The notes: a model not told the origin generated them from the sequence alone. Positions 6,830 through 35,930 are shown, numbered from the stretch's first letter. The stretch is DNA of 64,000 nt from Phycisphaerales bacterium (GCA_020852275.1 JADZBE010000026.1:116316-180315); one strand, 5' to 3'. Translations and numbers: made by a program.

Positions 6830-6872
6830 CGTTATTCAGAACCCGTGGCGCCGGCGAGGGCGGGGAGCAATT

Positions 6873-10836: not shown

Positions 10837-11682
10837 TCAACCCACGAAGTCGATTTGCGCCGTGTGTGGAATCAGTCCGGCCTCGTGTGCGCGGCGCAGC
10901 AACTCGCGGACAGCATGGCGGCCCGCGTCGCCGTAGTCGATCGTCCAGTCGTTGACGTACATGCCGACGAAGCGATCGGCGAGGTCGCGGCCCATATCCC
11001 GCGCGTATTTCATCGCGTGCCGCACGGCTTCGTCACGATGCGCGAGGCTGTATTGGATGCTGCTTTTGAGAATCGCGGCGATTTCGTTCAAGGTGGATTC
11101 GCCGCCGAGGTCTCTGCGGATCGCGTTGCCGCCCAGCGGCAAGGGCAGGCCTGTCTCCTGCTTCCACCAGGCGCCGAGGTCCACGATCTTGTGCAGGCGG
11201 TGGTTGCGATACGTGAGCTGCCCTTCGTGGATGATCAGCCCCGCGTCCGCTTCGCCGCGTTCGACCGCCTGCAGGATGCGATCGAACATCATCACCTTGT
11301 GGCGGAACCGCCCCTTCCCCAGCAGCAGGTTCAGCGTCAGGAAGGCCGTCGTCATCTCACCGGGCACGGCGATCAGCCGCCCGGCCAAGTCCGCCGGATC
11401 CATCGGGTCGCGGGCGACGACGAGCGGCCCGTATCCGTCGCCCATGCTCGATCCGCAGTGGGTCAGCGCGTAGCGCTGGGCGACGTAAGGATAGGCGTGA
11501 ATGCTGACGGCCGTGATGTGCAGCTCGCCGCGCAGCGCCCGCTCGTTGAGCGTCTGAATGTCCTGCAGCACGTGCTCAAACGTCCAGCCCTTCGTGTCCA
11601 CCAGGCCGGCGGCGAGGCCGTAGAACATGAAGGCATCATCCGGATCGGGGCTGTGACCAAGAGTGAGAAGTTTCGAGTTCAT
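10837..11682 (-). CDS. MqnA/MqnD/SBP-family menaquinone (futalosine pathway) biosynthesis protein, MqnD-like
   Basis: The N-terminus LTLGHSPDPDDAFMFYGLAAG...FEHVLQDIQTLNERALRGELHITAVSIHAY resembles the MqnD pattern (G-SPCPND-F-F...DI..LN...ELD). The length of 281 aa fits. The exact enzyme assignment (MqnA versus MqnD) is uncertain. Confidence 0.6.
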   Translation of the reverse strand: MNSKLLTLGHSPDPDDAFMFYGLAAGLVDTKGWTFEHVLQDIQTLNERALRGELHITAVSIHAYPYVAQRYALTHCGSSMGDGYGPLVVARDPMDPADLAGRLIAVPGEMTTAFLTLNLLLGKGRFRHKVMMFDRILQAVERGEADAGLIIHEGQLTYRNHRLHKIVDLGAWWKQETGLPLPLGGNAIRRDLGGESTLNEIAAILKSSIQYSLAHRDEAVRHAMKYARDMGRDLADRFVGMYVNDWTIDYGDAGRHAVRELLRRAHEAGLIPHTAQIDFVG

Positions 11683-14795: not shown

Positions 14796-15683
14796 CTACT
14801 GCTCGTACATCCCCGCCAGTTTGCGGAGTGCCTCGCGCTCGATCTGGCGGACGCGCTCGCGAGTCAGCCCGATCTTGGCGCCGATCTGCTTGAGCGTGTA
14901 CGGACCGTCGCCCTCCAGCCCGTAGCGGTACTTGAGGATTTCCACTTCGCGCACTTCGAGGTTCTTCAGCAGTCCCACCAGGCGATCCGTGTCACCGGCG
15001 AACGTGAGATCGTCATCCGGCAACGAGCCGTTGGGGTCCGGCAGCGAGTCGGTGATCGGCGCGTGGTTGGGGTCGTCGGACTCGCCGGCGGTGATGCTCA
15101 CGGCCTTCAGCGCGTTCTGGATGTGGCGGATCTTCTTTTCCGGCATGGCCAGGGCGAGGGCGAGTTCACCCGTGCTGGGCTGCCGCTTCTCGTGCTCGCG
15201 GAAATGGTCGATCGCGCGGCGGTAGCGCGAAATCAGCTCCACCATGTACGCCGGGATGTGTACCGGCTTGTCGCCGTTGATGAGGCTGCGCTTGATGGAT
15301 TGCTTGATCCACCACGAGGCGTACGTGCTGAAGCGCGTGTTCTGCCCGGGGTCATATCCTTCGACCGCGCGGATCAGCCCGAGGTTCCCCTCGTTGATCA
15401 GGTCGGACAGGGGCATGCCGCGCTTGGCGTACTTCTTGGCAATGTTGACCACGAGGCGCAGGTTGGCGCTGACCATGCGCTCCCGCGCCATCTGCGCCGC
15501 GCGCTCCGCCCGGTCGCGGTCCTCAAAGCTGATCCCCCCCTCGCGGAACTGCTCCGCCGCCGTCTGGGCATAGCGGACTTCGCCGGCCAGCCGGCGCTCG
15601 TCTTCCGGAGAAAGGAGGTCGGCCTTGTTGATCTGCTTGAGGTAGGTTTGCAGTCCTGCATCGACGATCATGCGTGACCTCAT
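14796..15683 (-). CDS. RNA polymerase sigma-70 family factor (RpoD/RpoS/RpoH-like, regions 1.2-4.2)
   Basis: Region 2 reads LSDLINEGNLGLIRAVEGYDP...RFSTYASWWIKQSIKRS. Region 4.2 reads TLKQIGAKIGLTRERVRQIEREALRKLA. An alternative start at ATG 15671 has a better SD (GAGG). Confidence 0.85.
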   Translation of the reverse strand: MRSRMIVDAGLQTYLKQINKADLLSPEDERRLAGEVRYAQTAAEQFREGGISFEDRDRAERAAQMARERMVSANLRLVVNIAKKYAKRGMPLSDLINEGNLGLIRAVEGYDPGQNTRFSTYASWWIKQSIKRSLINGDKPVHIPAYMVELISRYRRAIDHFREHEKRQPSTGELALALAMPEKKIRHIQNALKAVSITAGESDDPNHAPITDSLPDPNGSLPDDDLTFAGDTDRLVGLLKNLEVREVEILKYRYGLEGDGPYTLKQIGAKIGLTRERVRQIEREALRKLAGMYEQ

Positions 15684-15891
15684 CCGGCGCGCCGGCTGGG
15701 GCGCGAGCGGTAGAACAAAGGTCCCACGATTCAGTTTCGACGACCTGCCTCCTGATAAGAAACGAGCGAGCGCAGCGGCGGCGGGGCAGCCCCCATGTCT
15801 TCCAGCAGAGGAAGCCCTCCCCCGACCCCTCCCGAGGGGAGGGGGAAGAGGAGGCGGGCACAGCCCGCCCTACGGCACTCCCGAGAGGAGA

Positions 15892-15919
15892 GCACGTCCC
15901 GGAGGTCCGTGCCACCCCT
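15892..15919. repeat. REP-like element, second subfamily, inverted orientation
   Basis: GCACGTCCCGGAGGTCCGTGCCACCCC is the reverse complement of the 10734 copy. It lies just downstream of the rpsA stop. Confidence 0.75.
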
Positions 15920-15933
15920 CTGGCCACGGGCTG

Positions 15934-17676
15934 CTAGATCAGGCCCATTTCCTGATCGCCGTCCGTGTGCAGTCCTCCGCGACGGGCTTTCGGTCGGCGC
16001 TCGGCGGCGCTTTCCGTATCCTGGTCGGCGCTCCACTCCGCTCGTTTCTTGGACAGACCGATCTTCCGGTCCACCGGATCGACCCGCAGGATCTTGACCT
16101 GGATGCGGTCCCCGATCTTGACCTCCTGGTGCGGGTCTTCAACCTTATGATCGGCGAGTTCGCTGACGTGCAACAGCCCTTCGAGGTCCTCTTCCAGCTC
16201 GACGAACACGCCGAAGTTGGTGATCTTCGTGACTTTGCCCTCCACGATCTGCCCGGGGATGTAATTCTCGGGCACGGCCCGGACCCAGGGGTCTTCGTGG
16301 AGTTGCTTGAGACCCAGCGCGATGCGCTGATTTTCCTCGTCCACTTTCAGCACGACGCACTCCGTCTCGTCGCCCTTCTTGAGCAGCTCCGACGGATGCG
16401 TGATTTTCTTGGTCCAGCTCAGGTCGGAGACGTGCAAAAGCCCGTCCACGCCCTCCTCGATCTCCACAAAGGCCCCATAATTGGTCAGGTTGCGGATGCG
16501 GCCCTTGATGCGCGTGTTCGGCGGGTACTTCTGCGCGACCTGCGTCCACGGGTTCACCTGCGTCTGCTTGATGCCCAGCGAGATTTCCTGCTTGTCCTTG
16601 TTGACGTCGAGCACCACCACTTCGATCGAGTCGCCCGCGTTGAGGATCTCGGACGGGTGATTGATGCGCCGGGTCCAGCTCATCTCGCTGATGTGCACCA
16701 GACCTTCCACGCCCGGCTCGATCTTCACGAACGCGCCGTAGTTCATGATGTTGACCACTTCGCCCTTGACCTTGCGCCCCACCGGGTAATTCTGCTCGAT
16801 CTGCTCCCACGGATTGGCCGAGAGCTGCTTGAGCCCCAGCGCGATCTTCTCCCGGTCGCGGTCGATCGTGAGCACCTTCACTTCGATTTCGTCGTCGATG
16901 CGCAGCAGCTCCTGCGGATGCCCCACGCGGTCCCAGCTCATGTCCGTGATGTGCAGCAGACCGTCGATGCCGCCGAGGTCCACGAACGCGCCGAAATCCG
17001 CGAGGTTCTTGACGATGCCCTTGCGCACCTGGCCCTCTTCGAGGCTCGACATCAACGCTTCCTTCGCGGCGTTGCGGCTCTCTTCGATCAGCTTCCGCCG
17101 CGAAATCACGATGTTGCGCCGCTCGACGTCGATCTTGATGATCTTCGCCTCCACCGTCGTCCCGATCATCTCGCCGATGTCGCCCGGGCGGCGGATGTCC
17201 ACCTGGGAGGCCGGAAGGAACACGGGATACCCCACGTCCACCAGAAGCCCGCCCTTGATCTTCCGCATGACCGTGCCCGCGACGAGATCGCCTTCCTTCT
17301 TGGTCTCAACGATGCGCTGCCAGTTCAGCAGGCGGTCGGCCTTGCGCTTGGAGAGGACGATGTGCCCGTCGGATTCGGACTCGACGGCTTCGAGCCAGAC
17401 CTGAACGGTGGCGCCGACCTCCACCTCCTTGGCGTTGTCCCACTCACCGGCGGGGACGATGCCCTCGCTCTTGAGTCCCACGTCCACCACGAGGTCGTCG
17501 CCGGCGCGCCCGACGATGCGACCGGTGAGGATCGTGCCCGGGCGATACTCGGTCTCGGTCGGGCAGGTCAGCGTGCCGACCGTCTGATCGGAGGCATCGC
17601 CAAAAATCTCGCTCATCAGCGAATCCAGCTCGCCGCCGCCCTTGTCCAGTTCATTAATGAGATTGAAATCAACCAT
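15934..17676 (-). CDS. rpsA: 30S ribosomal protein S1
   Basis: 580 aa with six S1 (OB-fold) repeats. Recurring patterns are G-IV-G-V----FGAFV-L--G-EGL-HISE. Confidence 0.92.
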   Translation of the reverse strand: MVDFNLINELDKGGGELDSLMSEIFGDASDQTVGTLTCPTETEYRPGTILTGRIVGRAGDDLVVDVGLKSEGIVPAGEWDNAKEVEVGATVQVWLEAVESESDGHIVLSKRKADRLLNWQRIVETKKEGDLVAGTVMRKIKGGLLVDVGYPVFLPASQVDIRRPGDIGEMIGTTVEAKIIKIDVERRNIVISRRKLIEESRNAAKEALMSSLEEGQVRKGIVKNLADFGAFVDLGGIDGLLHITDMSWDRVGHPQELLRIDDEIEVKVLTIDRDREKIALGLKQLSANPWEQIEQNYPVGRKVKGEVVNIMNYGAFVKIEPGVEGLVHISEMSWTRRINHPSEILNAGDSIEVVVLDVNKDKQEISLGIKQTQVNPWTQVAQKYPPNTRIKGRIRNLTNYGAFVEIEEGVDGLLHVSDLSWTKKITHPSELLKKGDETECVVLKVDEENQRIALGLKQLHEDPWVRAVPENYIPGQIVEGKVTKITNFGVFVELEEDLEGLLHVSELADHKVEDPHQEVKIGDRIQVKILRVDPVDRKIGLSKKRAEWSADQDTESAAERRPKARRGGLHTDGDQEMGLI

Positions 17677-17987
17677 GACACTTCACGTGAATTCGGAACG
17701 CTCGAAGCCGCAAGAGGAGGGGGAGAGGCTCGGACCGACTCGACGTACGCGAACAAGGAAGCCCTCGGAAAACCAGCCTCCCCGGCGGGAGCTTCCTCCC
17801 CGCCCGGTCGGCGAACGCAAACGGGCAGCATCGGTCCAGTCGCCGGCGGAGTCAAGCCCCCGGGTGAATGCCCGCCTCACGCCTCACGGGGGCAGGGCAA
17901 CCACATTCTGACCCCGAGTCGGCGTGGCATCGTCCGGCGTGTCTTCCATGCCCTGGAGCGCCCGCGACTCCAGCGCACTCGGGCCGG

Positions 17988-18020
17988 CCACGGGCCCGCG
18001 GCTGCGGACCCGTGCCACCC
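17988..18020. repeat. Hairpin REP-like element
   Basis: CCACGGGCCCGCGGCTGCGGACCCGTGCCACCC, a member of the main GGTGGCAC family. Confidence 0.8.
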
Positions 18021-18127
18021 GCTGGTCCTGCATTCCTCAGAATGCGGTTGCCCTGCTCACGGGGGTCTGCCCACGGTTCTTGGCATTTCCGTTCGAGCCA
18101 CCCCCGATTTCGATTTCGTCCTGGGAG

Positions 18128-18220
18128 GCTCGACCCATGGCCCGAGGTCGAGTGGACTCGATGCCCGAAGCCGAGTCAGCTCGATCTCCGAAGCGAAGTC
18201 GGCTCGATTTCCGGAGCAGC
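18128..18220. repeat. 23-bp tandem repeat, about 3.5 units
   Basis: The units are cccgaggtcgagtggactcgatg (18141), cccgaagccgagtcagctcgatc (18164) and tccgaagcgaagtcggctcgatt (18187), with partial flanking units. Each unit has an internal short palindrome such as TCGAGTGGACTCGA. Confidence 0.75.
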
Positions 18221-18566
18221 GTCAGCCTGATCCCCGCAGGGGATCCAGGTGACTAGCCGTGGGCGCGGCCCACTGAAGCCGGCGCGTGAGGGACCCAACC
18301 CCGAGAGGAGTTGTACGTCTGCTGCGGTTCCGGCGCACGCTGGAGAACGGATGGTGCGACCCCTTCGAGTTTGGGATTGTTTCGATCACGCGCAACGGCA
18401 AAGCCCTGGCACGGGCGTGGCACACTGCCTGCGACGGGCAAGCACGCCCTTTCGTAAAGGGTGAGGCCGGAAAAATCCCAAGCTCTTCGGGGTCGAATGC
18501 TGGGCGGCGAAAATCCCGCGGGCTGCGCCTGCGGCTATTCACGTATTTCCCCTTCGGGGAAAGGAA

Positions 18567-21230: not shown

Positions 21231-21461
21231 GGTCCTACTCCTCTTCTAAATCATGTGCTCGATCGAATCATCCCGAGGCCGTCGCGTGGGTGACGCCCGC
21301 ACCCAGCCTCCCGGATTCCTTCGAGTCAGGCGACGCATTCCTTACACCCGGCGAAACGCGCAGCCGGCGTGGACGCGACGGAGCCATTACCAAGGCGCCG
21401 GCAGGCTCGTTTCCGAGGATGCTCGGGACTATCATGTCAAGGTCTGGAGGGATCAGGCCCG

Positions 21462-21935
21462 ATGGCGCAGGAGTCTCAGAACAGACTGGTGGAGTGGTAT
21501 CTGGCGATTCGCGCCTGGGTGCCGGCGGCTCGGCGCGGAGTGGAGGCGTGGCTGGCGCAGGTGCGCGCGGAGCCGGCGCTGCTGTGGGAATCGTCGGCGG
21601 TGCGGTGCACGCTGCTGGGTCTGGGCGGGCTGGTGGTGGTGTGGATCGTTTCGACCGGCGTGAACCTGGTGGCGATCCCGCCGCCCGCGGACGCGCAGCC
21701 GCCGTCGGAGCGCGCGTACTTCCACGTGATTTGCGCCGACTCCTCGTGCCGGCATCATTTCACGCTCTTTGAGAAGAAGAGCTTCGACGATTTTCCGGTG
21801 AAGTGCCCGCGCTGTGGCAAGCTCGACGGAGCACAGGCGCGGCAGTGCTTCTCGAAGTCGTGCGGCGGGCGCTGGACCATTCCGCAGCTGCGCGACAAAC
21901 AACCCGTGTGCGGTTCCTGCGCGCAGCCGCTGTAG
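21462..21935 (+). CDS. Membrane-anchored zinc-ribbon protein (hypothetical)
   Basis: The ORF is trimmed to ATG 21462, which follows a GGAGGGA SD. One TM helix is present (CTLLGLGGLVVVWIVSTGVNLVAI). The Cys clusters are CADSSC...CPRCG and CFSKSC...CGSC. Confidence 0.55.
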   Translation: MAQESQNRLVEWYLAIRAWVPAARRGVEAWLAQVRAEPALLWESSAVRCTLLGLGGLVVVWIVSTGVNLVAIPPPADAQPPSERAYFHVICADSSCRHHFTLFEKKSFDDFPVKCPRCGKLDGAQARQCFSKSCGGRWTIPQLRDKQPVCGSCAQPL

Positions 21936-22120: not shown

Positions 22121-22870
22121 ATGAATGAAACGAAGACTTCGCCGGTCTGGAACGAGGAATCGCTGCGTGATCCGCACGAAGCGAGCGACAAGTCGCGGCG
22201 CGTGCGCGTCATGTTCGACGCGATCGCGCCGACGTACGAGCGCGTCAACCGCTGGTTCAGCTTTGGGCGCGACGCGTCGTGGCGGAGGCAGGCCGTGCGG
22301 CTGGCGGGTGTCGGCGCGGCGGACGCGGTTCTGGACGTGGCCTGCGGGACGGGGGATCTGTCGCGCGCATTTGCCGTCGGCGGCGCGGGTCAGGTGGTCG
22401 GGTGCGACTTCGCGCTGGGGATGCTGAAGCTGGCGGCGCGGCGACCTGTTTCGCGCGCGACGTGGTGCGCGGGCGACGCGCTGGCGCTGCCGTTCGCCGA
22501 TGCGACATTCGACGTGGCGAGTTGTGCGTTCGGCGTGCGCAATTTTCAGGATCTGGACGCTGGGCTGCGGGAGTTTCATCGCGTGCTGCGCGGAGGCGGG
22601 CGGGCGGTGATTCTGGAGTTCACCCGGCCCGCGCGGCGCGCGATCCGCGGGGCGTACGAGTGGTACAGCGGCAAGGTCATGCCGCTCCTGGCGACGTGGA
22701 TGTCGCGCGACCGCAGCGGCGCGTATCGCTACCTGCCGCGGTCGGTGGTATCGTTTCCGGGCGCGTCGGAGATGTCGGATCGGCTCCGCGCGGCGGGTTT
22801 TTCACGCGTGCTGGCGTCGCCGCGCACGTTCGGCGTGGTGACGATTTACGTGGCGTGGAAAGAGGCGTGA
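22121..22870 (+). CDS. ubiE: Demethylmenaquinone/ubiquinone C-methyltransferase (UbiE/MenG)
   Basis: The ORF is trimmed to ATG 22121. Family motifs include VRVMFDAIAPTYERVNRWFSFG and LDVACGTGDL (SAM motif I). Further motifs are FGVRNFQDLDAGLREFHRVLRGGGRAVILEF and YRYLPRSVVSFP. Confidence 0.85.
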   Translation: MNETKTSPVWNEESLRDPHEASDKSRRVRVMFDAIAPTYERVNRWFSFGRDASWRRQAVRLAGVGAADAVLDVACGTGDLSRAFAVGGAGQVVGCDFALGMLKLAARRPVSRATWCAGDALALPFADATFDVASCAFGVRNFQDLDAGLREFHRVLRGGGRAVILEFTRPARRAIRGAYEWYSGKVMPLLATWMSRDRSGAYRYLPRSVVSFPGASEMSDRLRAAGFSRVLASPRTFGVVTIYVAWKEA

Positions 22871-24801
22871 TGTCTGAAGCGGTGATGACCTTGGAGCCGC
22901 AGTCGGCGGCACGACCCTCCACCGATGTCTGGTCGCGCCACGGCGGGCGGTATCGCGCGCGGGCCATCCTCCTGCTGTGTCTGAACGTCCTCCTGTTCTC
23001 CGGCGTGTGCTGCTTCGCCTACTGGCTGCGCACCGGCGTGTTCCTCGCGCCGTGGCAGGAAGGGTACTGGAGCGTCCTGTTCCTCACGTTTCGCTTCACC
23101 GGAGAGGCGCACGTCACCTTGGCGTCGTTTCTGCTGGGACCGATGCGGGTGTCGGACGTGCCGGGGCTGATACCGATCCTGGGGTTGCTGGTGGCAGGCA
23201 TGGTCACGATCCCCGTGGTGGTGGCGATACTTTACCGGCTGACGTCCTCGCTGCCGTTCGTGGCGGTGGTGGCGTTCCTGGCGGTGATGCCGTGGCTGGC
23301 CATCACGCTGCTGGGTTGTTGCGTGCTGGCGACGTACCGGAGATTTCGTCAGCGGTCGCCGTTCATGTCGGCCATGATCGCGCTGCTTCCGGTGGTGCTG
23401 TACTTCGTGCTGGCGTCGCGCGGCACGGAGGCGCAGGTGGGCGATCTGCTCGACCCGCTGGACAAGATCCGATTTCTCGCGCCGTGGGCGATCGCCATCG
23501 TCTCGGGCGCGCTGCTGGTGGCGCTGGTCCTGGGCATCGCCCGCGTCGTGAACTACCGACCGGGCGCCATCGCGCCCGTGCTGACGCTGATGTTCTGTCT
23601 CCCCGCCGTGCTGTTTGAGTTCCAGGTCGGGCGCGACGAGCTGCATTACCGCCTGATCGAGCAGGGCAACCGCGGGTTCTTCGCCGACCGGCTGGAAGAC
23701 TGGGCCGCGCTCGACGCCTCGGCGGACTTGTACCGGCTGGCCGAGCAGGAGTGGTTCAGCACGCCCGAGCCGCGCCCGCGGTTCGACGAGGTGCTGGAGC
23801 GCGTGAAACTTCAGTGGAGCCTGCTCGGCCCCGAGCGCGAGCGCCAGGATGTCGAAGGGTTCCTGGCGATCGAAGGTTCCGTCCTGCTCGAGCATCAGGT
23901 CGCCTTCGCCCGCCAGTGCGATGAGTTTCTTCGCTACTACCCCGACAGCCGTTACGCGCCGAACGTGCTGTTCCTCAAGGCGTCCGCCTGGTGCAAGCGC
24001 GTGGACCTGCGCGAGTTCCGCCGCGGGAACTGGATTCGCTTCTACGATGATTTTCCGCATCCCGCTTCGGCGTTCGAGTGGCGGCGGCTGCTCGTGAACT
24101 TTCCGGACTCGGGGCTGTCCGACGTGGCTCGGCTGCGGCTGGCTCAACTGGAGATCCGCCGGTGCCACATCGGCGCGGCGCGGGAGCTTCTTGACGACCT
24201 GCTCAGCGCCGCCCCGCGAACGCTCCATGAGGAGGATGGCGGCGGCGCCGCGACGACCCCTTGGCGGGCCTTTCTACAGCGACGCCCCGCGTCACAGGGT
24301 CTGATCGTGAATCTCAAGCACATTCGCCTGGAGGCGCGGCGGCTTGGCGACCTGATCGAGCACAACAACGACCCGACCGTCGGTTACGCCCCGCTGTGCG
24401 GCGACGATCGCCCCGAAGCCGGGCTGCGGTTCGGCCTGCTTCAACTGGATCCCCACGGCGCCGGCTACATGAGCCAGGTGCAGGCGATCAAGGACGCGTA
24501 CCCGGACTCGCTGTGGACCGACAACCTTGATCTTGAGCTGGCGCGCGTCGAATCCGACCCGGACACGCGCATCGAACGATTCACGGCTTTCCTCGGCAAA
24601 CATGCCGGAAAGAGCGGCGACGCCGAGCCGGAGGCGAGATTCCTCCTGGGGGCGGCGCTGCAGCAGGCCAACCGGCTGCCCGAGGCGGCTGCGGAGTTCG
24701 ACACGCTCCTCCGCCTGTTTCCCGACAGCCCCTGGGCCGCCGAAGCCAAGCCCCTCATGTCATCCCCCGTCCCGTTTTCCCAGGAGCCAGCCGTCCCATG
24801 A
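22870..24801 (+). CDS. Polytopic membrane protein with C-terminal TPR-like domain (unknown function)
   Basis: ATG 22870 overlaps the ubiE stop, and its own stop overlaps the ubiX ATG (ATGA at 24798). About 7-8 hydrophobic helices occupy the first ~270 aa. A soluble helical region follows, with YbgF/TPR-like segments (YPDSRYAPNVLFLKASAW, FPDSGLSDVARLRLAQLEI, FPDSPWAAEAKPL). Confidence 0.7.
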   Translation: MSEAVMTLEPQSAARPSTDVWSRHGGRYRARAILLLCLNVLLFSGVCCFAYWLRTGVFLAPWQEGYWSVLFLTFRFTGEAHVTLASFLLGPMRVSDVPGLIPILGLLVAGMVTIPVVVAILYRLTSSLPFVAVVAFLAVMPWLAITLLGCCVLATYRRFRQRSPFMSAMIALLPVVLYFVLASRGTEAQVGDLLDPLDKIRFLAPWAIAIVSGALLVALVLGIARVVNYRPGAIAPVLTLMFCLPAVLFEFQVGRDELHYRLIEQGNRGFFADRLEDWAALDASADLYRLAEQEWFSTPEPRPRFDEVLERVKLQWSLLGPERERQDVEGFLAIEGSVLLEHQVAFARQCDEFLRYYPDSRYAPNVLFLKASAWCKRVDLREFRRGNWIRFYDDFPHPASAFEWRRLLVNFPDSGLSDVARLRLAQLEIRRCHIGAARELLDDLLSAAPRTLHEEDGGGAATTPWRAFLQRRPASQGLIVNLKHIRLEARRLGDLIEHNNDPTVGYAPLCGDDRPEAGLRFGLLQLDPHGAGYMSQVQAIKDAYPDSLWTDNLDLELARVESDPDTRIERFTAFLGKHAGKSGDAEPEARFLLGAALQQANRLPEAAAEFDTLLRLFPDSPWAAEAKPLMSSPVPFSQEPAVP

Positions 24802-25409
24802 ACCCGGAATGCTCACGGCGCATCGTGGTCGCCATCACCGGCGCCAGCGGCGCGGCCTACGCTCGGCGCGTGGTGGACCAGTTGCTCCGCGCCGGGGTCG
24901 AGGTCCACCTGGTCGTCTCCACGTTCGGCCGCCGACTCCTGCGCGATGAGCTGGGCATCAGCAATGTCAGCGCGGTGGATTTGCTCGGACGCGAAGACGA
25001 GCGGCTCGTGCTTCACGCGTACAAAGACGTCGGAAGTCTGCTGGGCAGCGGATCGTTCCGAACGGACGGCATGATCGTGTGCCCGTGCAGCACGCACACG
25101 TTCGCCGCCATCGCGGCCGGGCTGGGCGACAACCTTATCAACCGCGCGGCCGCGGTCACGCTCAAGGAACGGCGGCGGCTCATTCTGGTCGTGCGGGAGA
25201 TGCCGCTGACGCACATTGATCTGCTCAACGCGGTGCGTCTCAGCGACGCGGGCGCGATCGTCTGTCCGGCTTCACCCGGGTTTTACATGGTGCCGCGGAC
25301 GCTGGAAGACATCGTGGATTTCGTGGCGGGGAAGGTGCTGGATCTTGTGGGGGTCGCGCACGAGCTGAACGTGCGCTGGGAGAAGAGCGAGGCCCGCGGA
25401 ACATGGTGA
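24798..25409 (+). CDS. ubiX: Flavin prenyltransferase UbiX family (MqnL-like)
   Basis: Family motifs are RIVVAITGASGAAY, MIVCPCSTHTFAAIAAGLGDNLINRAAAVTLKERRRLILVVREMPL and CPASPGFY. Confidence 0.9.
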   Translation: MNPECSRRIVVAITGASGAAYARRVVDQLLRAGVEVHLVVSTFGRRLLRDELGISNVSAVDLLGREDERLVLHAYKDVGSLLGSGSFRTDGMIVCPCSTHTFAAIAAGLGDNLINRAAAVTLKERRRLILVVREMPLTHIDLLNAVRLSDAGAIVCPASPGFYMVPRTLEDIVDFVAGKVLDLVGVAHELNVRWEKSEARGTW

Positions 25410-25996
25410 ACGGGACTCCCAGTGACCAACCCGTTGCTGCGAGTTCGGCGGCGCCGGGGGCGGCTGCGCAGCGGCAACCAATTGCGCACCTGCAGCAGGT
25501 CGCGCAGCAGCGCCCGCTCGCCCATCGCGTGCTGCTCCTCGTCGGATCCCTGGGACCGCTGGGGTGGATGCCGGCGTCGGGTACGGTGACGGTCGGGTTG
25601 GTCGGCGTGCCGTTGTTCTGGTGGATGTCGGGAATGGGTCCGCTGGGCTGGTGCGCGATTCTGCTGCCGCTGGGTTTGGCGTCGGTGTGGATACATCAGG
25701 TTGGGGATCGGCTGCTGGGCGAAGAAGACAGCGGCACGCTCGTGTGGGATGAGGTCTTCGGGTATCTCGTCGCGGTGGCGGCGCTTCCTTGGACGTGGCA
25801 GATCGCCCTGACGGCTTTTCTGGTGGAGCGGACTTTGGACATCGCCAAGGTGCCTCCCGCCAATGTGATTGAGCGACGCTGTCCGGGGGGATGGGGCGTG
25901 GTCGGCGATGACCTGGTGGCGGGTCTTTACGCGCGGCTCCTGCTGATGGCGGGGATCGCTCTGGTTCCGGAATGGCTGGGGCTTGGCGGGGGATAA
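25403..25996 (+). CDS. pgpA: Phosphatidylglycerophosphatase A
   Basis: It overlaps the ubiX stop by 7 nt. PgpA family motifs are GSLGPLGWMPASGTVTVGL, DEVFGYLVAV, DIAKVPP and GWGVVGDDLVAGLYA. Confidence 0.8.
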   Translation: MVNGTPSDQPVAASSAAPGAAAQRQPIAHLQQVAQQRPLAHRVLLLVGSLGPLGWMPASGTVTVGLVGVPLFWWMSGMGPLGWCAILLPLGLASVWIHQVGDRLLGEEDSGTLVWDEVFGYLVAVAALPWTWQIALTAFLVERTLDIAKVPPANVIERRCPGGWGVVGDDLVAGLYARLLLMAGIALVPEWLGLGGG

Positions 25997-26397
25997 TGCC
26001 ATCCGAACCCCCACGGTTGTGGGGGGGCTTGCGGTGTTGCGCTTTCCAGCAGGCGCTGCTCACCCATGCTTGCCGCCCCGCTTCCCGTCGGGAGCAGAGC
26101 AGGCATGCCCGAATCCGGGTCCTTCCGATTGACGGGACATCTGATTACGGCCTACGATGTGCTCAGCCGACTGCCGGGTGGCGCTGCGCTCGCGGAGCGC
26201 GGACGGACGCGGTTTCGGCGGAAGGAAGTCGACCGCACGCGGATCGGATCCGCGCCAAGCTGGCTCGGGCACGATCGGCGTGGGCCATGCCGATGCCATT
26301 ATTGAATCCCGATACCGTATCGCGTAGGGATGGTAAGTTGTAAGTTGCTTCCTTGGCTTAAGTTACGCTCAAGCCAGGCGTTGAGGAGTTGGAACAC

Positions 26398-29300
26398 ATG
26401 AGGCTGCCGAAGTCTTCGACGATTTGCGTGACCTTGCTGTCCGCGTTCGGGGCGGTGTTCGCGGCGTACTTTGCCGGGTGCGGCGTCGCGCCGCAGCCGA
26501 ACGTCATTATCGGCCCGAACGTGGAGGGGAACAACCGCCCGACGCTGGAGATCACCAGCCCCACGCGCGACCTGTCCATCGGGCAGGGGCAGCCGCTGTT
26601 GATCCGCTGGGTGGACAGCGACACCGACAGCAACGCCACCATCAGCTTCCGGCTGGTTAATACCGCGAACAACTCCTCGGTGACCCTGGTCTCCAGCCTG
26701 GTCGAAAACGACGATCAGGGGCCTGACGAATTCGCGGCCTCGACGGCGCTGGTGCCTCAAGCTGAATACAACCTCCAAGGCGTGATCGACGACCGCCAGA
26801 ATCCGCCCGTGCTCGTGTACGCGCAGACCCCTCCGCCGAATCCGCAGCGCGTGAAGATCACGGTCGCCGGAGAAGGCGAAGCTCCGACCACGCGTCCGCC
26901 CCAGGTCAACGTCATCACCCCGACCTTCGATCTCAGCGTGGCCGAGCAGGATACGCTGGACATCATCGTGAACCCGACGGCGTTTCTGACGGGCGAGGCT
27001 TACGATGAGGACAGCGAGTGTACGCTGTACATCCTGCTGGACACGGATGAAAACCCGGACAACGACGATCCCGCCAATCCGGGCAGCAGCATCATCGTGC
27101 TGGACACGCGTCAGATTGCCACGGGCGTGACGGACGCGATCGGGCTGCCGGTGTCGGTTTCGCTGTCGGAGATTCCCCCTCGCGCCAATGGGGAGCCTTA
27201 CTTCATCCGCGCGACGATCACGGACCAGGACAATCCTCCGGTGCACGACTATGCCGACGGCACGATCAGCGTGGTCAAGCTCGCCTTCGGCGAGGTGGAC
27301 CTGTACAATGCCGGGCGAACGGTTTCCGGCTCCCGATTCTACGGCTTCACGCCCAGCGCCAAGCTGGGTTCGCGCGTGGCGAGCGTCTCGGATTTCGACG
27401 CGGACGGCGCGGACGACTTCATGATGATCGCCCAGTTCGGCAATCCACGCGGCGTCGGCCCCGTGGGCGAATCTTACCTCATCTACGGCGCGCCCAATCG
27501 TCGCTACGGCGGCACGTTCCCGGCCAACGGCACGGCCGAGGCGATCCAAGGGTGCATTTTCGAGGCCCCGCCCATCCGCGACTTCTGGCTGACCACGGAC
27601 GGCGCGACGAACGGCATCACGGATGCCGGCTTCATCCCTGACGTTTCCGGCGACGGGCGCCCGGAACTTCTGGTCGGCATGTCGCTGGCGCACGGCATCT
27701 GGCAGGGCATGGACTGGGATCCGGCGGATCAGCACGTCGCCGGCGTGCTTGAGGAGCAGGTGACCCTGCGCATTCGTCAGGGGCAAGTGGTCGAGGTCGT
27801 CGGCGGCGCGGAAACCGTCGTGGACACGACTTACAGCGGCGTTGACGATCTCATCATCAGCAACTGCCGCGGTTCCAACTGCACGCTGGGCGACGACGCC
27901 ACCAGCAATGGGCAGGGCGTGGAGCTGAACTGGAATCAAAGCACGACGACGGGAACCCAGTGGACGCTGCTGAAGTTCAAGGAGATCCTCCAGGTCCTCG
28001 CCGATCGTGGCGACCAGCCGGGCGAGCTGGATATTCCCGAAGTCCAGGCTTCGCTGACGGTGAACGTCTTCCGGTCCGGCGACAACGGCAGCCTCTACCA
28101 GGCGTACGCGTACTTCGACGAATCCACGACGCATTCCACGTTTGCCAAGGGCGGTGGAGATCCGGTTCTGGGCGTGGATTACGCCTCCTCAGACGACGGC
28201 GGCACGGACACCCCGATCGGCAGCATCGACGCCGGCGATATCGGGGAAGTCGCCATCGACGTGTCGGAGATGATTCAGGAATTGCTGCAAGGCACGCTGC
28301 AAGGCTCAGATGCCGGAGACACAACCAGCGATCCGCTCGTGGACATCGACGAGCTTCGCTTCCTGGTGGACGCCGTGGGCGAGCTTGACGCTTCTCCGTC
28401 GCCGGGCGCCATCCGATCCAGCGAATTCAGCACCAACCAGTCGCTGCGGCCGACCCTCGCCATCACATACACGCGGCGCATTGCGGCCGCCAGCGCCTGC
28501 TATCCCGACGACCTGGTCAACAACCGCACCAACGCCCCGCCGGGCGGGCCGGTCAACGACGACTCCTATGATGCGGGCGGCGTGGCCGTGATGATCAACA
28601 GCGAAAACCGCGACAACGACGGCAACATCGACCCCAACCGGTTGTGGAACACCGCCGTGACCTTGGAGCTGGCCGGGCAGGAGCCGGGCATCGTGCTCGA
28701 TCCCGGATTCACGCAGCGCGCCCAGGGACGAATCCCCGGTCGCATCGACGGCTGCCGCTTCCAGAACGGGTATTACGACTACATCGACCCGTTCATCCTG
28801 AATCAGCCGATTCGCCGCGACCTGTTCGGCAGCCATGTCGCGTCCATTCCCGACATGAATCTCGACCTTCAGCCGGAGATTATCATCTCATCGCCGCTGA
28901 ATGAGCGGTATTTGCAGGATCTCGAGGACGAGTTCGGCATTTTCAGTTCGACCCAGTGGTGGTCCACGCCCATCAAGGGCAGCATCGTCATCTTCCCCGG
29001 CGCCGACTACAGTCTCGTGACCGGCAACACCGGCGACTGGGCTGATGAAGCAAGCAACTCGCAGATTCCCATCCGTGAGTTCGGCGCCTGTCCGCCGCCG
29101 GGCGTGCGCCGAGGGCTTTTCATTCCTGTGGACACGTACGAGATCTTCGCCGAAGACCTCGATGACTTCCTCCAGGACGGTCAGTACGCCGGCGACATCA
29201 ACCTCGACAACGTGCCTGACATCCTCTGCGGGGCGCCGCTGAACAACCGCGGCGCGCTCATTGACAGTGGAGCCGTGTACATCATCGAGGGCAAGAACTT

Positions 29301-30285
29301 CATGGGCGAGGTCGATCTGGGCGACGCCGACGATCCGACGATTCGCCACCCGATGGTGCGCATCCGCGGCGCCAAGGCCAACGACCGCATCGGCACGTCG
29401 CAGGCGGCGGGTCTGGACGTCAACGGCGACCGGCTCGACGACGTGTTCTTCGCGTCGCCGTTTGCGGACTACGGTCTGGCGCGCACGCAGGACTGCGGGC
29501 AGGACTTCAACGGCGACGACCTCGTGGACGCCAATGACTTCGTCCTGACCGACTTCAACGATTGCGTGGACAGCGTCGGCGACGACGTGTTCACCGACGA
29601 CGCATGCAAGGCGTTCGATTACAACAACGACTCGGTCATCGACGACCTGGACCGCGAGGTCTTCGACTGCCTCGCCGACGGGGGCACGACCTGCTGCGAC
29701 ACCACGGTGGACAACGGCTACATCGGCGTCATCTTCGGCGGCGTCACGATCGACGGCGATTTCGAGTTGAGCCAGGTGGCGACCACGGACATGCCGGGCG
29801 TCATTTTCTACGGCGCGCACTCGCTGGATCGCGCCGGCACGGACGTCAGCTCCGCGGGTGACTTCAACCGCGACGGTTACGGCGACCTGCTCATCGTCAC
29901 GCCGGGTGAAACCAAGATGGACGCGAACAGCAGGCTGCGCAAGGGTCTGGTGTACCTCGTCTTCGGCGGTCCGCACCTGCAGAACCGCATCTTCTCGCTG
30001 GAAGACGTCGGCACGGACCGCCTGCCCGGCATCTACTTCCTCAGCCCGTACGTCGCCAAGCGCCCGAACGAAGCCGCACCCGAGACGGCCACTCTGCTGG
30101 GCGACATCAACGACGACGGGTACGACGACATCGCCATCGGCAATCCGCGGGCGGACTTCATTAACCTGAACTTCCCGCAGGGTCCGAACGCGTCGAACGA
30201 GGACGCTTCCGTGGGCCGCCGTCGCAACACCGGCGACGTGTATGTGATCTACGGCAACAACTTCGGCTCGAACCGGCTCCCGTAG
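26398..30285 (+). CDS. Large secreted/lipoprotein FG-GAP (integrin alpha-like) repeat protein with dockerin-like segment
   Basis: ATG 26398 lies 9 nt after GAGGAG. The signal with lipobox-like end is ...AAYFAGC. FG-GAP Ca-binding repeats include SDFDADGADDFMMIA, DVSGDGRPELLVG, GDINLDNVPDILCGAP and GLDVNGDRLDDVFFASP. Further copies are AGDFNRDGYGDLLIVTP and GDINDDGYDDIAIGNP. Confidence 0.85.
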   Translation: MRLPKSSTICVTLLSAFGAVFAAYFAGCGVAPQPNVIIGPNVEGNNRPTLEITSPTRDLSIGQGQPLLIRWVDSDTDSNATISFRLVNTANNSSVTLVSSLVENDDQGPDEFAASTALVPQAEYNLQGVIDDRQNPPVLVYAQTPPPNPQRVKITVAGEGEAPTTRPPQVNVITPTFDLSVAEQDTLDIIVNPTAFLTGEAYDEDSECTLYILLDTDENPDNDDPANPGSSIIVLDTRQIATGVTDAIGLPVSVSLSEIPPRANGEPYFIRATITDQDNPPVHDYADGTISVVKLAFGEVDLYNAGRTVSGSRFYGFTPSAKLGSRVASVSDFDADGADDFMMIAQFGNPRGVGPVGESYLIYGAPNRRYGGTFPANGTAEAIQGCIFEAPPIRDFWLTTDGATNGITDAGFIPDVSGDGRPELLVGMSLAHGIWQGMDWDPADQHVAGVLEEQVTLRIRQGQVVEVVGGAETVVDTTYSGVDDLIISNCRGSNCTLGDDATSNGQGVELNWNQSTTTGTQWTLLKFKEILQVLADRGDQPGELDIPEVQASLTVNVFRSGDNGSLYQAYAYFDESTTHSTFAKGGGDPVLGVDYASSDDGGTDTPIGSIDAGDIGEVAIDVSEMIQELLQGTLQGSDAGDTTSDPLVDIDELRFLVDAVGELDASPSPGAIRSSEFSTNQSLRPTLAITYTRRIAAASACYPDDLVNNRTNAPPGGPVNDDSYDAGGVAVMINSENRDNDGNIDPNRLWNTAVTLELAGQEPGIVLDPGFTQRAQGRIPGRIDGCRFQNGYYDYIDPFILNQPIRRDLFGSHVASIPDMNLDLQPEIIISSPLNERYLQDLEDEFGIFSSTQWWSTPIKGSIVIFPGADYSLVTGNTGDWADEASNSQIPIREFGACPPPGVRRGLFIPVDTYEIFAEDLDDFLQDGQYAGDINLDNVPDILCGAPLNNRGALIDSGAVYIIEGKNFMGEVDLGDADDPTIRHPMVRIRGAKANDRIGTSQAAGLDVNGDRLDDVFFASPFADYGLARTQDCGQDFNGDDLVDANDFVLTDFNDCVDSVGDDVFTDDACKAFDYNNDSVIDDLDREVFDCLADGGTTCCDTTVDNGYIGVIFGGVTIDGDFELSQVATTDMPGVIFYGAHSLDRAGTDVSSAGDFNRDGYGDLLIVTPGETKMDANSRLRKGLVYLVFGGPHLQNRIFSLEDVGTDRLPGIYFLSPYVAKRPNEAAPETATLLGDINDDGYDDIAIGNPRADFINLNFPQGPNASNEDASVGRRRNTGDVYVIYGNNFGSNRLP

Positions 30286-34836: not shown

Positions 34837-35602
34837 ACAGGGTCGAACCTGCCGGGAGGGTTTCGGATGCGGCCGAACGCCGCGGGACGAGCGTCCACGT
34901 CAGCGATGCGATGCCGAAGGAGAACAGCACGACGGAGAGCACCACGCGGATGACCCACGACCAGCGTCGCTGCCCGCGCGTCAACTCCTTCGTCACGTGC
35001 TCGATCGAGCCTTTCTCGAAGCGCCCGCTTTGCGTGACCCAGCGGACGTAACCCAGTGCGCCGCCCGGCGGGTAGCGATCCTCAACAGACCGCTCCACCG
35101 ACGTCTCGACGTGCCGCATGTAGGCGTCCTTGGTCATGCCCTCAGGCAGGCGCTGCCGGGCGTCCACGGCCTGCTTGGCCATGTCGTGCGGAAGCCCGTC
35201 GATCTCCCATTTCATCGACGTGCCCAACCCGACAAGGACGATCAGGGTCGTACCGGCCACGACTTGCCACCGTGGCAGGCGGGCGCCTTTCCCCGCCGCG
35301 CGACAGACCGTGGCGCCAATGAGCAGCCCGAAAAGCGCGTAGAAAAACAGGCCCAGGAACGCCATCAGAAAGGCGACGTACGAAAGCAGGATGCCGAGGG
35401 GGATCGCCAGCGCGCAGCCGGCGAGGATGGCCCGCAGCCATCGCGGATCGAAGCCCCGCGCCGGGGCGGCTTCTGCGGCGAGGTGCTCCGGCGCGCAGGC
35501 TGCAGCGCTCGCCCCCATGCCGGTCGCGGTGTTTGTCGCCGCCGCCGCTCTGCTCGTGTCCGCCACGTCCCCCACTGCTGCCCTTTCAGTCGCTTTCCGC
35601 AT
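34829..35602 (-). CDS. Hypothetical membrane protein (about 4 TM helices with a soluble loop domain)
   Basis: The hydrophobic helices are WLRAILAGCALAIPLGILLSYVAFLMAFLGLFFYALFGLLIGA, VVAGTTLIVLVGLG and WSWVIRVVLSVVLFSFGIASL. It overlaps the DUF190 stop and the Nudix start. The start codon is uncertain (ATG 35602 or 35518). Confidence 0.6.
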   Translation of the reverse strand: MRKATERAAVGDVADTSRAAAATNTATGMGASAAACAPEHLAAEAAPARGFDPRWLRAILAGCALAIPLGILLSYVAFLMAFLGLFFYALFGLLIGATVCRAAGKGARLPRWQVVAGTTLIVLVGLGTSMKWEIDGLPHDMAKQAVDARQRLPEGMTKDAYMRHVETSVERSVEDRYPPGGALGYVRWVTQSGRFEKGSIEHVTKELTRGQRRWSWVIRVVLSVVLFSFGIASLTWTLVPRRSAASETLPAGSTLYG

Positions 35603-35930
35603 CCGAGCGGTAGATCAACACCTGCACGTCTTCCAGCGTGACCAGCCCCTCACGCACCATCTGCTGCAGCACGGGAAGAAAGGCGTCGATCTTGACGCGC
35701 TCGTCCACGATCTCGATCACCATCGGCATGTCCTCGCTGAGCCGCAGCACCTTGGCCGTGTGCAGCCGGGAGTGAGCGCCGAAACCCATCACGCCTTTCA
35801 GAACCGTCGCGCCGGCGAGGTGCATCTGCCGCGCCTTCTGCACGATGGCCTCGTAGAGCGGGGCATGTTGCCACCGATCCGACTCGCCGACGAATACCCG
35901 CAGCAAGATCCCCTGCATGGGCGTGGTCAT
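35586..35930 (-). CDS. DUF190 (PII-like, CrcB-associated) protein
   Basis: The ORF is trimmed to ATG 35930. LLRVFVGESDRWQHAPLYEAIVQKARQMHLAGATVLKGVMGFG matches the DUF190/UPF0166 pattern. The gene lies immediately downstream of crcB. Confidence 0.75.
   Translation of the reverse strand: MTTPMQGILLRVFVGESDRWQHAPLYEAIVQKARQMHLAGATVLKGVMGFGAHSRLHTAKVLRLSEDMPMVIEIVDERVKIDAFLPVLQQMVREGLVTLEDVQVLIYRSDAESD

Follow-up and report, generated by a model that had tools for sequence, protein, structure and literature searches.

In E. coli, genes for helpers of ubiquinone synthesis follow ubiE, in the order ubiE-ubiJ-ubiB. Ubiquinone synthesis in this organism depends on UbiJ, UbiK and UbiB, helpers that are either non-enzymatic or atypical (bioRxiv 10.64898/2026.03.05.709815; PMC9499169). 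They are needed to handle hydrophobic prenylated quinone intermediates efficiently, and act in or with a soluble complex; UbiJ is an SCP2-domain protein, UbiK a coiled coil and UbiB a kinase-like ATPase. For menaquinone made by the futalosine route, the late steps (MqnP, MqnL, MqnM and MenG) have been predicted by comparative genomics (PMC4746308), but, unlike for ubiquinone synthesis, no accessory factor is described in the literature we found. The gene considered here, referred to as X, encodes an integral membrane protein of 643 aa that ends in a helical-repeat (TPR) domain, and is a concrete, class-wide candidate for such a factor. It is like UbiJ, UbiK and UbiB only in where its gene lies and in the role proposed for it: the X protein shares no sequence or structural similarity with any of the three, is polytopic with a probably periplasmic repeat domain, and occurs in a menaquinone (futalosine) context.

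The C-terminal repeats of X recall a second group of described proteins. The TPR domain of CpoB (YbgF), which serves the Tol-Pal system in the periplasm, aligns with the last ~120 residues of X (6g5s_A, E=6.9e-8; 2xev_A, E=9.6e-6; TIGR02795, E=3.5e-8). CpoB is, however, small and soluble, starts with a coiled coil and is encoded in the tol-pal operon, whereas X consists of a ~250-residue membrane domain followed by ~380 residues of repeats. X is not CpoB/YbgF, since the TIGR02795 match reaches only 34.1 bits against a cutoff of 90.1, covers only residues 568-626, and is accompanied by a different architecture and gene context. Repeats of the same type are found in BamD (YfiO) and in YfgM-type proteins (TPR_21), and Rhodothermus BamD (3qky) is among the fold matches. 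BamD and YfgM are periplasm-facing docking modules, to which the X repeat domain can be likened, but BamD is an outer-membrane lipoprotein and YfgM has a single anchor helix; neither has the polytopic domain or the quinone-gene context of X. Assignment of X to BamD/YfiO was rejected on scores below cutoff (TIGR03302, 29.6 bits against 81.4; PF13525, 23.6 against 25), the polytopic N-terminus and the lack of a lipobox signal peptide.

X (22870..24801, plus strand) lies in a window of 64,000 nt from a Phycisphaerales bacterium (GCA_020852275.1 JADZBE010000026.1:116316-180315). Its 1932 nt comprise 643 codons and a stop, and the open reading frame (ORF) call ends in the same frame at 24801. At the junction with ubiE, the sequence TGATG (22868-22872) contains both the ubiE TGA (22868-22870) and the X ATG (22870-22872), with base 22870 common to the two. 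At the junction with ubiX, the sequence is ATGA (24798-24801), where the ubiX ATG (24798-24800) overlaps the X TGA (24799-24801). Shine-Dalgarno-like sequences lie 5′ of both starts, AAGAGG (22860-22865) for X and AGGAG (24782-24786) for ubiX. Further downstream, ubiX ends at 25409 and the pgpA ATG is at 25403. An earlier note on this DNA had described these three contacts, namely the base shared by the X start and the menG stop, the X stop within the ubiX ATG and the 7-nt overlap of ubiX with pgpA, and all of them can be read directly from the sequence. The GC3 of X (0.80) is like that of the adjoining genes, an identical NCBI protein (P0001, from a Phycisphaerales bacterium MAG) is annotated as a “hypothetical protein”, and there are 159 homologues with 38-89% identity. 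X is a real, conserved gene that is embedded in an operon and coupled to its neighbors. An alternative GTG start at 22279, which would give an 840-aa protein, was rejected because homologues begin at the ubiE stop; an ORF on the minus strand opposite X (22846-24228) fails the codon-position GC test and was set aside as a high-GC shadow ORF. A scan of the operon for promoters and terminators found none above shuffled expectation.

The gene upstream of X is ubiE/menG (22121..22870, plus strand), encoding demethylmenaquinone methyltransferase (PF01209, 170 bits; NF001244, 221.6 bits against a cutoff of 216). Its ORF is open from 21803, but the family match starts at ORF residue 127, and ATG 22121 is the likely start. 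Downstream of X are ubiX (24798..25409, plus strand), encoding an MqnM-type flavin prenyltransferase (NF004685, 200 bits against a cutoff of 188), and pgpA (25403..25996, plus strand), encoding phosphatidylglycerophosphatase A (PF04608, 94.7 bits). The pgpA gene sits where most relatives have an MqnP-like UbiA, an arrangement seen only in the window and in the closest relative (L001), and neither UbiA nor UbiD was found within the 64-kb window. An MqnA/MqnD-family gene (10837..11682, minus strand; PF02621, 265 bits), a marker of the futalosine route, lies outside the X operon. Its presence had been recorded in the earlier note, and the futalosine route proposed there is supported by this gene together with the MqnL- and MqnE-type genes of related operons.

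Evidence that X belongs with the quinone genes came from comparison of related loci. The X family is confined to Phycisphaerae/Planctomycetota MAGs, with linkage to quinone genes in about 90 Phycisphaerae lineages sampled. In 80 species-level genomes, with relatives down to 35% identity, ubiE is directly upstream of X in 79, ubiX is directly downstream at every locus with enough contig, and an MqnP-like UbiA follows ubiX in 66 (TIGR01475, 251 bits against a cutoff of 181). X therefore lies inside, rather than beside, the quinone gene set, and its linkage to menG and ubiX is kept outside the genome in which it was noticed, in essentially all 80 relatives. In related loci the genuine UbiA is a separate gene near X. 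Junction distances across the family, estimated with a nearest-start heuristic, show an overlap or a gap of ≤30 nt for ubiE to X at 79/83 loci, for X to ubiX at 70/76 loci (ATGA in 41) and for ubiX to ubiA at 64/68 loci; gene callers concur on tight junctions at four loci (L081-L084). L076 and L078, at 35% identity the farthest members of the core clade, lie in an MqnL-MenG-X-MqnM-MqnP-MqnE-like operon, where MqnL scores 589 bits (TIGR03701, cutoff 496) and the MqnE-like protein 427 bits, against a TIGR03700 cutoff of 434. UbiD or MqnE-like genes also occur near X at L053, L058, L064, L073 and L079. In a reciprocal test, all four contigs picked via MqnP homologues alone (4/4) have an X-family gene immediately before ubiX-ubiA. 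Unbiased clustering of flanking ORFs was swamped by high-GC shadow ORFs and recovered only ubiE, ubiX, an out-of-frame UbiA and a superoxide dismutase of the Fe/Mn type; called genes were used instead. X is a member of a late-step menaquinone (futalosine-route) gene cluster, the exception within the family being most of the sister subfamily described below.

The predicted architecture of X has two parts. The membrane domain (residues 26-252; 22945..23625, plus strand) was modeled by AlphaFold with pLDDT 86-87, as helices 26-55, 100-121, 124-137 with 141-155, 164-189, 196-226 and 231-252. Residues 26-252 contain about 6-7 hydrophobic helices, where about 7-8 had first been proposed; the large helical-repeat domain that was part of the same proposal is present. 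Helices 124-137 and 141-155 form a putative re-entrant hairpin, with M140-P141-W142 invariant at the tip in the core clade. The membrane domain is the best-conserved part of X; its mean column identity is 67%, compared with 46-50% over the full length. The polar residues N39, C151, E250, R54 and Y66, which lie in the bilayer or close to it, are invariant in the core clade. Residues kept across both subfamilies are LYR (121-123), C151, R160, YRPG (229-232) and GxDELxY (254-260). Several residues that are invariant in the core clade differ in the sister subfamily, its ubi-linked members among them, with F in place of E250 and HAP in place of MPW.

The C-terminal domain (residues 255-631; 23632..24762, plus strand) is predicted to be an all-helical repeat domain, with TPR and CpoB matches. 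It opens with a conserved amphipathic VGRDELxYRLLE helix, and its last three repeats are CpoB/YbgF-like. Membership in the TPR superfamily applies to this domain only, with TPR_19 (28.4, cutoff 25) and TPR_14 (26.2, cutoff 23.5) matching residues 586-626; among 27 members of the X family, Pfam finds TPR_6 in 24, YfiO in 18 and TPR_21 in 11. Loop charges in both subfamilies, combined with the similarity of the repeats to CpoB, BamD and YfgM, suggest that the repeat domain most likely faces the periplasm, one of the two orientations named in the earlier note.

The membrane domain is an orphan, with no Pfam or NCBIfam match in X or in 27 relatives. PDB sequence-profile searches with full-length, membrane-domain and sister profiles found only CpoB/YbgF-type TPR matches and noise (TrkH, E=0.6; ribose-5-phosphate isomerase, E=0.05; a Sel1 protein, E=0.02). 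Foldseek searches of the PDB gave only generic TPR superhelices for the full-length model (TM 0.2 or less), and a best E=1.1 with TM <0.3 for the separately predicted membrane domain (GPCRs, MFS transporters and others). Neither by sequence nor by fold (Pfam, NCBIfam, PDB) does X resemble quinone-binding or quinone-biosynthetic proteins, nor does it show a nucleotide-binding motif or a catalytic motif of a known kind. The view that no function has been described for such a protein is borne out by the lack of any family or fold match for this domain. A confidently predicted structure without a Pfam, NCBIfam or PDB match merits definition as a family.

Specific families were considered and rejected. 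There is no family match to rhomboid or pseudo-rhomboid proteins, CAAX proteases, exosortase, VKOR/DsbB, CcsA-like proteins, GT-C or UbiA, and the catalytic residues Ser/His, EExxxR/H, Cys-Arg-His, CxxC, WWD and DxD/Asp-rich are missing from the invariant columns of X. For UbiA/MqnP/MenA prenyltransferases, X and 27 relatives lack a PF01040 match at E <0.01, and the membrane domain lacks an invariant Asp, although such enzymes have Asp-rich motifs of the NxxxDxxxD type in cytoplasmic loops. X has no match to UbiD/MqnL (PF01977/TIGR03701) or UbiX/MqnM (PF02441), and related operons encode the true MqnL and MqnM in genes of their own. Similarly, X has no Pfam or NCBIfam match at E <0.01 to UbiJ (SCP2), UbiK (BMFP) or UbiB (ABC1), a result that for Pfam extends to 27 relatives.

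A sister subfamily provides a second genomic association. Its full-length profile matches that of the X family with an hhalign probability of 100% (E=5e-74, 543 columns), and metagenomes were scanned for it with an alignment of 23 closer sequences. At most of its loci, ubi genes are absent within 10 kb. Directly upstream lies a YhdP/AsmA-like gene in 28/48 cases and ubiE in 2/48, and the downstream gene is MGDG-synthase-like (that is, like MGDG synthase or diglucosyl-DAG synthase) in 32/42 and ubiX in 3/42. Since most sister loci are flanked in this way without ubi genes, the X family is not obligatorily tied to quinone genes; its other genomic association is with YhdP-like lipid bridges and a gene resembling glycolipid synthases. 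Transport of phospholipid to the outer membrane is the work of YhdP-type proteins (PMC8593681, PMC8912898). A literature search turned up no inner-membrane partner of YhdP/AsmA-like transporters. The ubi-linked sister members are scattered in a neighbor-joining tree, and one is basal, which points to an ancestral linkage between X and quinone genes. Mixed loci combine the two contexts, with the order ubiE-X′-ubiX-ubiA-MGDG synthase at L085, L154 and L156 and ubiE-X′-MGDG synthase at L108. In the core clade, YhdP-like and MGDG-synthase-like genes are absent within 8 kb at 78/80 loci; a YhdP-like gene heads the operon at L076 and L078, with a weak Pfam match at L076 (25 bits against a cutoff of 46). 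A search for both subfamilies in one genome found no NCBI locus-tag prefix common to the two lists, which are a small sample. Identification of the sister clade with strictly fermentative Sedimentisphaerales is not supported, as its loci average 64% GC, against 44-53% for that order (PMC11266412). The paper just cited describes strictly fermentative orders that lack a respiratory chain.

The reading we favor, with roughly even confidence, is that X is an undescribed, Phycisphaerae-specific inner-membrane protein that serves as a non-catalytic accessory subunit of late futalosine-route menaquinone assembly. In this model, the polytopic domain would adjoin the prenyltransferase MqnP in the membrane, and would hold or present the prenylated naphthoate for decarboxylation by MqnL, whose cofactor MqnM supplies, and for methylation by MenG. 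Translational coupling would set the proportion of X to the enzymes. The helical-repeat domain would be a protein-docking platform; being most likely periplasmic, it would tie the quinone-making site to an envelope partner and would not recruit soluble enzymes. We infer the topology of X, its lack of catalysis and its contact with MqnP, MqnL and MenG, the X family having no conserved constellation of catalytic-looking residues. Support for an accessory subunit comes from the position of X between quinone genes, the tight junctions, the L076/L078 operons, the reciprocal MqnP test, the ancestral linkage to which the sister tree points and the precedent of UbiJ, UbiK and UbiB. Against it count the life of most of the sister subfamily apart from ubi genes, the probable extracytoplasmic location of the large domain when MenG, MqnM and MqnL are cytoplasmic, the lack of likeness to quinone-binding or quinone-biosynthetic proteins, and the pgpA gene in place of UbiA in a window without UbiA or UbiD. 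Operon membership is association, not function. The earlier proposal of a scaffold or missing component for the late steps therefore holds in part: the linkage to menG and ubiX is real and old, but a repeat domain that is most likely periplasmic fits poorly with the recruitment of MenG, MqnM and MqnL, which are cytoplasmic.

Its coupled position among late menaquinone genes makes X a good candidate for a helper of quinone or membrane-lipid assembly. The main alternative, possible if less than probable, is that X is a factor in the biogenesis of the envelope or of membrane lipids, the quinone genes being merely old neighbors in one ancestral “membrane lipid” locus, proposed as YchF-YhdP-(UbiD)-UbiE-X-UbiX-UbiA-(MqnE)-MGDG synthase. 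Such a factor might be the inner-membrane partner that feeds or docks a YhdP/AsmA-like periplasm-spanning conduit, or might handle the glycolipid of the MGDG-synthase-like enzyme. The sister neighborhoods, the YhdP-like genes heading two core operons, the mixed loci, the probably periplasmic CpoB/BamD/YfgM-like repeats, the coupled phospholipid gene pgpA in the window and the known role of YhdP in phospholipid transport, for which no partner was found, are all consistent with this model. However, nearly all core loci lack the lipid genes nearby, yet X always lies between ubiE and ubiX with overlapping codons. X is also present in every menaquinone late-gene cluster sampled in the class, and its mid-operon position in a single pathway is hard to ascribe to hitch-hiking alone; the weak YhdP match at L076 also counts against this model. 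A combination of the two roles, in which X is the first of a new membrane-protein class coupling quinone (and perhaps glycolipid) synthesis to a YhdP-type bridge, and the first dedicated non-enzymatic component of the futalosine late steps, is doubtful. If it were true, X would in effect do in bacteria what the membrane partners supplying bridge-like lipid transfer proteins do in eukaryotes.

Two further interpretations give X a more generic or a more catalytic role. All that can be recognized in X is a generic TPR module, which best matches repeats of the CpoB/YbgF, BamD and YfgM types, and the subfamilies differ in neighborhood, as would be expected of a housekeeping membrane-anchored TPR protein of the envelope-coordination or chaperone type (CpoB- or YfgM-like), kept in the operon for co-expression and without a functional tie to quinones or lipid transport. 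We consider this improbable, given that the membrane domain is better conserved than the protein as a whole, suggesting a specific membrane-embedded role, that the CpoB and BamD models score far under cutoff (34 against 90; 30 against 81), and that the neighbors are always membrane-lipid genes of some sort. If it were correct, the value of the finding would be confined to better annotation of Phycisphaerae genomes. An enzyme or transporter acting on quinone, such as a UbiB-like decarboxylation helper or a quinone/polyprenyl flippase, is very unlikely. While the conserved membrane domain with its invariant polar residues, the hairpin-like element with an invariant tip in the core clade and the precedent of UbiB, an accessory protein with a hidden catalytic role (bioRxiv 10.64898/2026.03.05.709815), would fit such an activity, MqnL, MenG, MqnM and MqnP are all present in the fullest operons, leaving no obvious missing step. 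Moreover, E250 and MPW are replaced in the sister subfamily, even where it is ubi-linked, and X has no nucleotide-binding or known catalytic motif.

The general layout of X, a polytopic N-terminus followed by a periplasmic TPR domain, is shared with fusions of GT-C glycosyltransferases (PMT_2/ArnT-like) to TPR domains, which are common in Planctomycetota. X is not a member of this group, as none of 27 family members has a Pfam match to it and Foldseek gave no significant hit (best E=1.1, TM <0.3); GT-C proteins have 11-13 helices against about 6 in X, and a yeast OST subunit (8agb_A) matches with E=2.8 and TM 0.19. Genes for GT-C-TPR fusions do lie near some related loci (L081, 6906-8252; L083, 17654-19513).

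X, the gene for a 643-aa membrane protein at window positions 22870-24801 (+), occupies an open frame ending at 24801 in an ORF listing, and its 1932 nt correspond to 643 codons plus a stop. The junctions described in the earlier note are present in the sequence: ubiE and X meet at TGATG, with one A common to the ubiE stop (22868-22870) and the X ATG (22870-22872); X and ubiX meet at ATGA, with the ubiX start at 24798-24800 lying over the X stop at 24799-24801; and ubiX (24798-25409) overlaps by 7 nt the next gene, whose ATG is at 25403. Shine-Dalgarno-like purine-rich motifs lie within the preceding genes (AAGAGG, 22860-22865; AGGAG, 24782-24786). Family-model scores bear out the identities proposed for the neighbours, namely UbiE/MenG adjoining X upstream (NF001244, 221.6 bits versus a cutoff of 216), a UbiX-family flavin prenyltransferase (NF004685, 200 bits versus a cutoff of 188) and PgpA (25403-25996; PF04608, 94.7 bits). 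X is a real gene. Its third-position GC of 0.80 is the same as that of the adjoining genes, a test failed by the ORF on the opposite strand (22846-24228 (-)); a Phycisphaerales MAG has an identical protein in the database under the label "hypothetical protein", and 159 homologues of comparable length are 38-89% identical. DNA of 66% GC typically contains shadow ORFs, and the very long antisense or out-of-frame ORFs of the window are of this kind, among them the 460-aa frame opposite X and an 860-aa frame at 15670-18252; they confound naive ORF clustering of related loci.

The inference that the organism uses the futalosine route is reasonable, since the window contains an MqnA/MqnD-family gene (10837-11682, minus strand; PF02621, 265 bits). 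There are no UbiA or UbiD genes anywhere within the 64-kb window, and an MqnP-type prenyltransferase must be encoded elsewhere in the genome. After ubiX, 66 other genomes have an MqnP-like UbiA; pgpA takes its place in just two cases, the window and L001, the closest relative of the window. Just 5' of ubiE, a 188-aa ORF (21369-21935 (+)) with a hydrophobic segment and a weak, sub-threshold zinc-ribbon match (PF10122/PF09723) is conserved in L001 only (83% identity).

Conservation of the gene neighbourhood had been proposed as a check, and the ubiE-X-ubiX linkage is kept across the 80 species-representative genomes, 35-89% identical to X, that were sampled for the core group of X and its ubiE/ubiX-linked relatives. 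ubiE lies immediately 5' of X in 79/80 core loci, the remaining one being truncated; ubiX lies immediately 3' in every core locus whose contig continues; and an MqnP-like UbiA gene (TIGR01475, 251 bits versus a cutoff of 181; MqnP models, 229-240 bits) follows ubiX in 66/80. Independent gene calls place 4-nt overlaps throughout ubiE-X-ubiX-ubiA. By a nearest-start heuristic, genes overlap or are separated by ≤30 nt at 79 of 83 ubiE-X, 70 of 76 X-ubiX and 64 of 68 ubiX-ubiA junctions; this heuristic favours short spacings, a bias that does not explain why the exact −4 class predominates. The fullest operon is found in the two most divergent core members, L076 and L078, and comprises genes for a YhdP-like protein, MqnL (TIGR03701 "menaquinone biosynthesis decarboxylase", 589 bits versus a cutoff of 496), MenG, X, MqnM, MqnP and an MqnE-like radical-SAM protein (TIGR03700, 427 bits versus a cutoff of 434). 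Five more core loci have UbiD or MqnE-like genes near X.

When 1.84 billion representative proteins were searched with a membrane-domain profile, only 283 clusters (E ≤1e-3) were recovered. Scores of 180-414 bits mark the core group and about 105-150 bits a sister group; an hhalign comparison shows end-to-end homology between the two (probability 100%, E=4.8e-74, 543 columns). The source labels seen are all Phycisphaerae or Planctomycetota, save for a few evidently mis-binned MAGs. Sister-group members, termed X', were sampled from 63 metagenomic loci and five contigs from a protein look-up. The gene immediately 5' of X' is YhdP/AsmA-like in 28/48 assessable loci and ubiE in 2/48, with YchF usually 5' of YhdP; the gene immediately 3' is MGDG-synthase-like, resembling diglucosyl-diacylglycerol synthase, in 32/42 and ubiX in 3/42. 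The YhdP/AsmA-like gene encodes 1400-1500 aa (L089, 5618-9988; L090, 3261-7550; L076, 1038-5579; many of L091-L153) and in L076 comes first in the full menaquinone operon, while the MGDG-synthase-like glycosyltransferase gene is the last of the sister-clade cluster. Mixed loci combine the two contexts, as ubiE-X'-ubiX-ubiA-MGDG synthase (L085, L154), the same preceded by UbiD (L156), ubiE-X'-MGDG synthase (L108) and X'-ubiX-ubiA-MGDG synthase (L140). The ubi-linked sister members are dispersed over a simple NJ tree, in which L140 is basal. The most economical history would be one ancestral locus, YchF-YhdP-UbiD-UbiE-X-UbiX-UbiA-(MqnE)-MGDG synthase, whose lipid genes were lost by the core clade and whose quinone genes were lost by many sister lineages.

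A reciprocal test started from the closest homologues of one sister-clade UbiA, chosen without reference to X. In 4/4 contigs examined, an un-annotated gene of 595-1289 aa lies directly 5' of ubiX-ubiA, and all four are X-family members (sister profile, E from 1e-166 down to 0). Thus, as far as sampled, every late-menaquinone cluster in the class contains an X-family gene. The converse fails, as X-family genes also exist outside such clusters.

Hydropathy and two AlphaFold models that agree with each other (full length, pLDDT 86.9 and pTM 0.86; residues 1-280, pLDDT 86.1) support a membrane domain with helices at 26-55, 100-121, 124-137, 141-155, 164-189, 196-226 and 231-252 and a conserved 44-residue loop (56-99) after the first. 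This domain is the best-conserved region (mean column identity 67% versus 46-50% for the whole protein), and the conserved motifs are DVWS, FAYWLRTG, ILYRF, AVMPWLA, VNYRPGA and LFEFxVGRDELYYRLLE; both subfamilies conserve LYR, one Cys, Arg160, YRPG and GxDELxY. The membrane domain has no Pfam or NCBIfam match in X and 27 relatives, PDB sequence-profile searches with it gave nothing above noise, and in a Foldseek comparison with PDB structures no match was better than E=1.1, with TM-scores <0.3. The C-terminal domain (255-631) consists of helical repeats throughout, of which only the last reach Pfam TPR thresholds (TPR_19, TPR_14). The commonest repeat models among 27 members are TPR_6 (24), YfiO/BamD (18) and TPR_21/YfgM-like (11); among PDB entries the family profile matched 6g5s_A, a CpoB/YbgF TPR domain (E=6.9e-8), and the full-length model retrieved generic TPR superhelices only. 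Family tests failed for CpoB, BamD, UbiA, UbiD/UbiX, the Ubi accessory factor families and GT-C enzymes as the identity of X. Some sister-clade members reach 1275-1289 aa (L156, 2531-6400; L088, 1888-5715, protein P0223); in the hmmsearch domain table their single membrane domain is succeeded by the entire repeat domain in three tandem copies, and they keep the position between ubiE and ubiX.

Loop net charge alternates in both subfamilies, each analysed independently and with the same pattern. Core-family values are +2.1 (N-terminus), −2.9 (loop 56-99), +1.0 (turn 122-126), +2.7 with acidic residues absent (loop 156-163) and −0.6 (loop 185-201), followed by a positive loop around 225-232 and −1.8 past the last helix. 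To satisfy the positive-inside rule, helices 124-137 and 141-155 would have to form a hairpin with both ends cytoplasmic, its tip reading VMPW in core members and GHAP in sister members. Such a hairpin would place the repeat domain in the periplasm, as in CpoB, BamD and YfgM, a topology that the loop charges make fairly likely.

The late menaquinone steps are themselves genomic predictions (PMC4746308). A role for X in them is favoured because the gene sits mid-operon in a single-pathway gene set, is translationally coupled on both sides and keeps this placement from 89% to about 30% identity, and because of the outcome of the reciprocal test. X would act as a non-catalytic accessory or organising subunit in late menaquinone assembly, since the fullest operons already hold all four expected enzymes, the residues common to both subfamilies are unlike an active site, and ubiquinone synthesis offers a precedent in UbiJ, UbiK and UbiB (bioRxiv 10.64898/2026.03.05.709815; PMC9499169). 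X may work in a similar way to these Ubi-type factors, although it does not belong to their families. That X is instead a hidden enzyme or transporter is very improbable. It is also unlikely to be a generic TPR housekeeping protein. Existing annotation of the family goes no further than "hypothetical" or "tetratricopeptide repeat protein"; membership of the TPR superfamily applies to the C-terminal part only.

We give a quinone accessory subunit about an even chance. What speaks against a role dedicated to quinones is that most genes of the sister clade are without quinone neighbours and that the big repeat domain is probably on the periplasmic side. The chief alternative, a possible but less probable one, is an envelope-lipid factor acting with the YhdP-like bridge and the glycolipid synthase; YhdP in E. 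coli is a phospholipid conduit (PMC8593681, PMC8912898). An attractive idea combining both is that X may link the places where lipid or quinone is made to a conduit in the periplasm. The literature searched makes no mention of the family's embedding in a late operon of the futalosine route. What is new here is a specific, testable lead: an orphan membrane domain carried by a protein encoded within the operon, which would be a helper in assembling isoprenoid quinones or membrane lipids by a mechanism that is still a proposal.

Other features were noted in the window and the related loci. In about 36/80 related loci (e.g., L040, 3170-3784; L084, 8467-9081), an Fe/Mn superoxide dismutase gene immediately precedes ubiE in the same orientation, ~2.2 kb 5' of X, an arrangement that the window does not share. 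Directly after the operon, the window encodes a 1298-aa secreted-type FG-GAP-repeat protein (26389-30285 (+)), and L084, a related locus, has flanking FG-GAP proteins too (1343-7178). A CrcB and DUF190 gene pair of the fluoride-channel type (35586-36456 (-)) likewise occurs a few kb from the operon in L081 (17293-18128) and L082. The window also carries three genes for a proton-translocating NAD(P) transhydrogenase (PntAA, PntAB with 4 TM, and PntB; 5297-9060 (+)) and a D12-class N6-adenine DNA methyltransferase gene (52578-53702 (-); PF02086, 62.6 bits).
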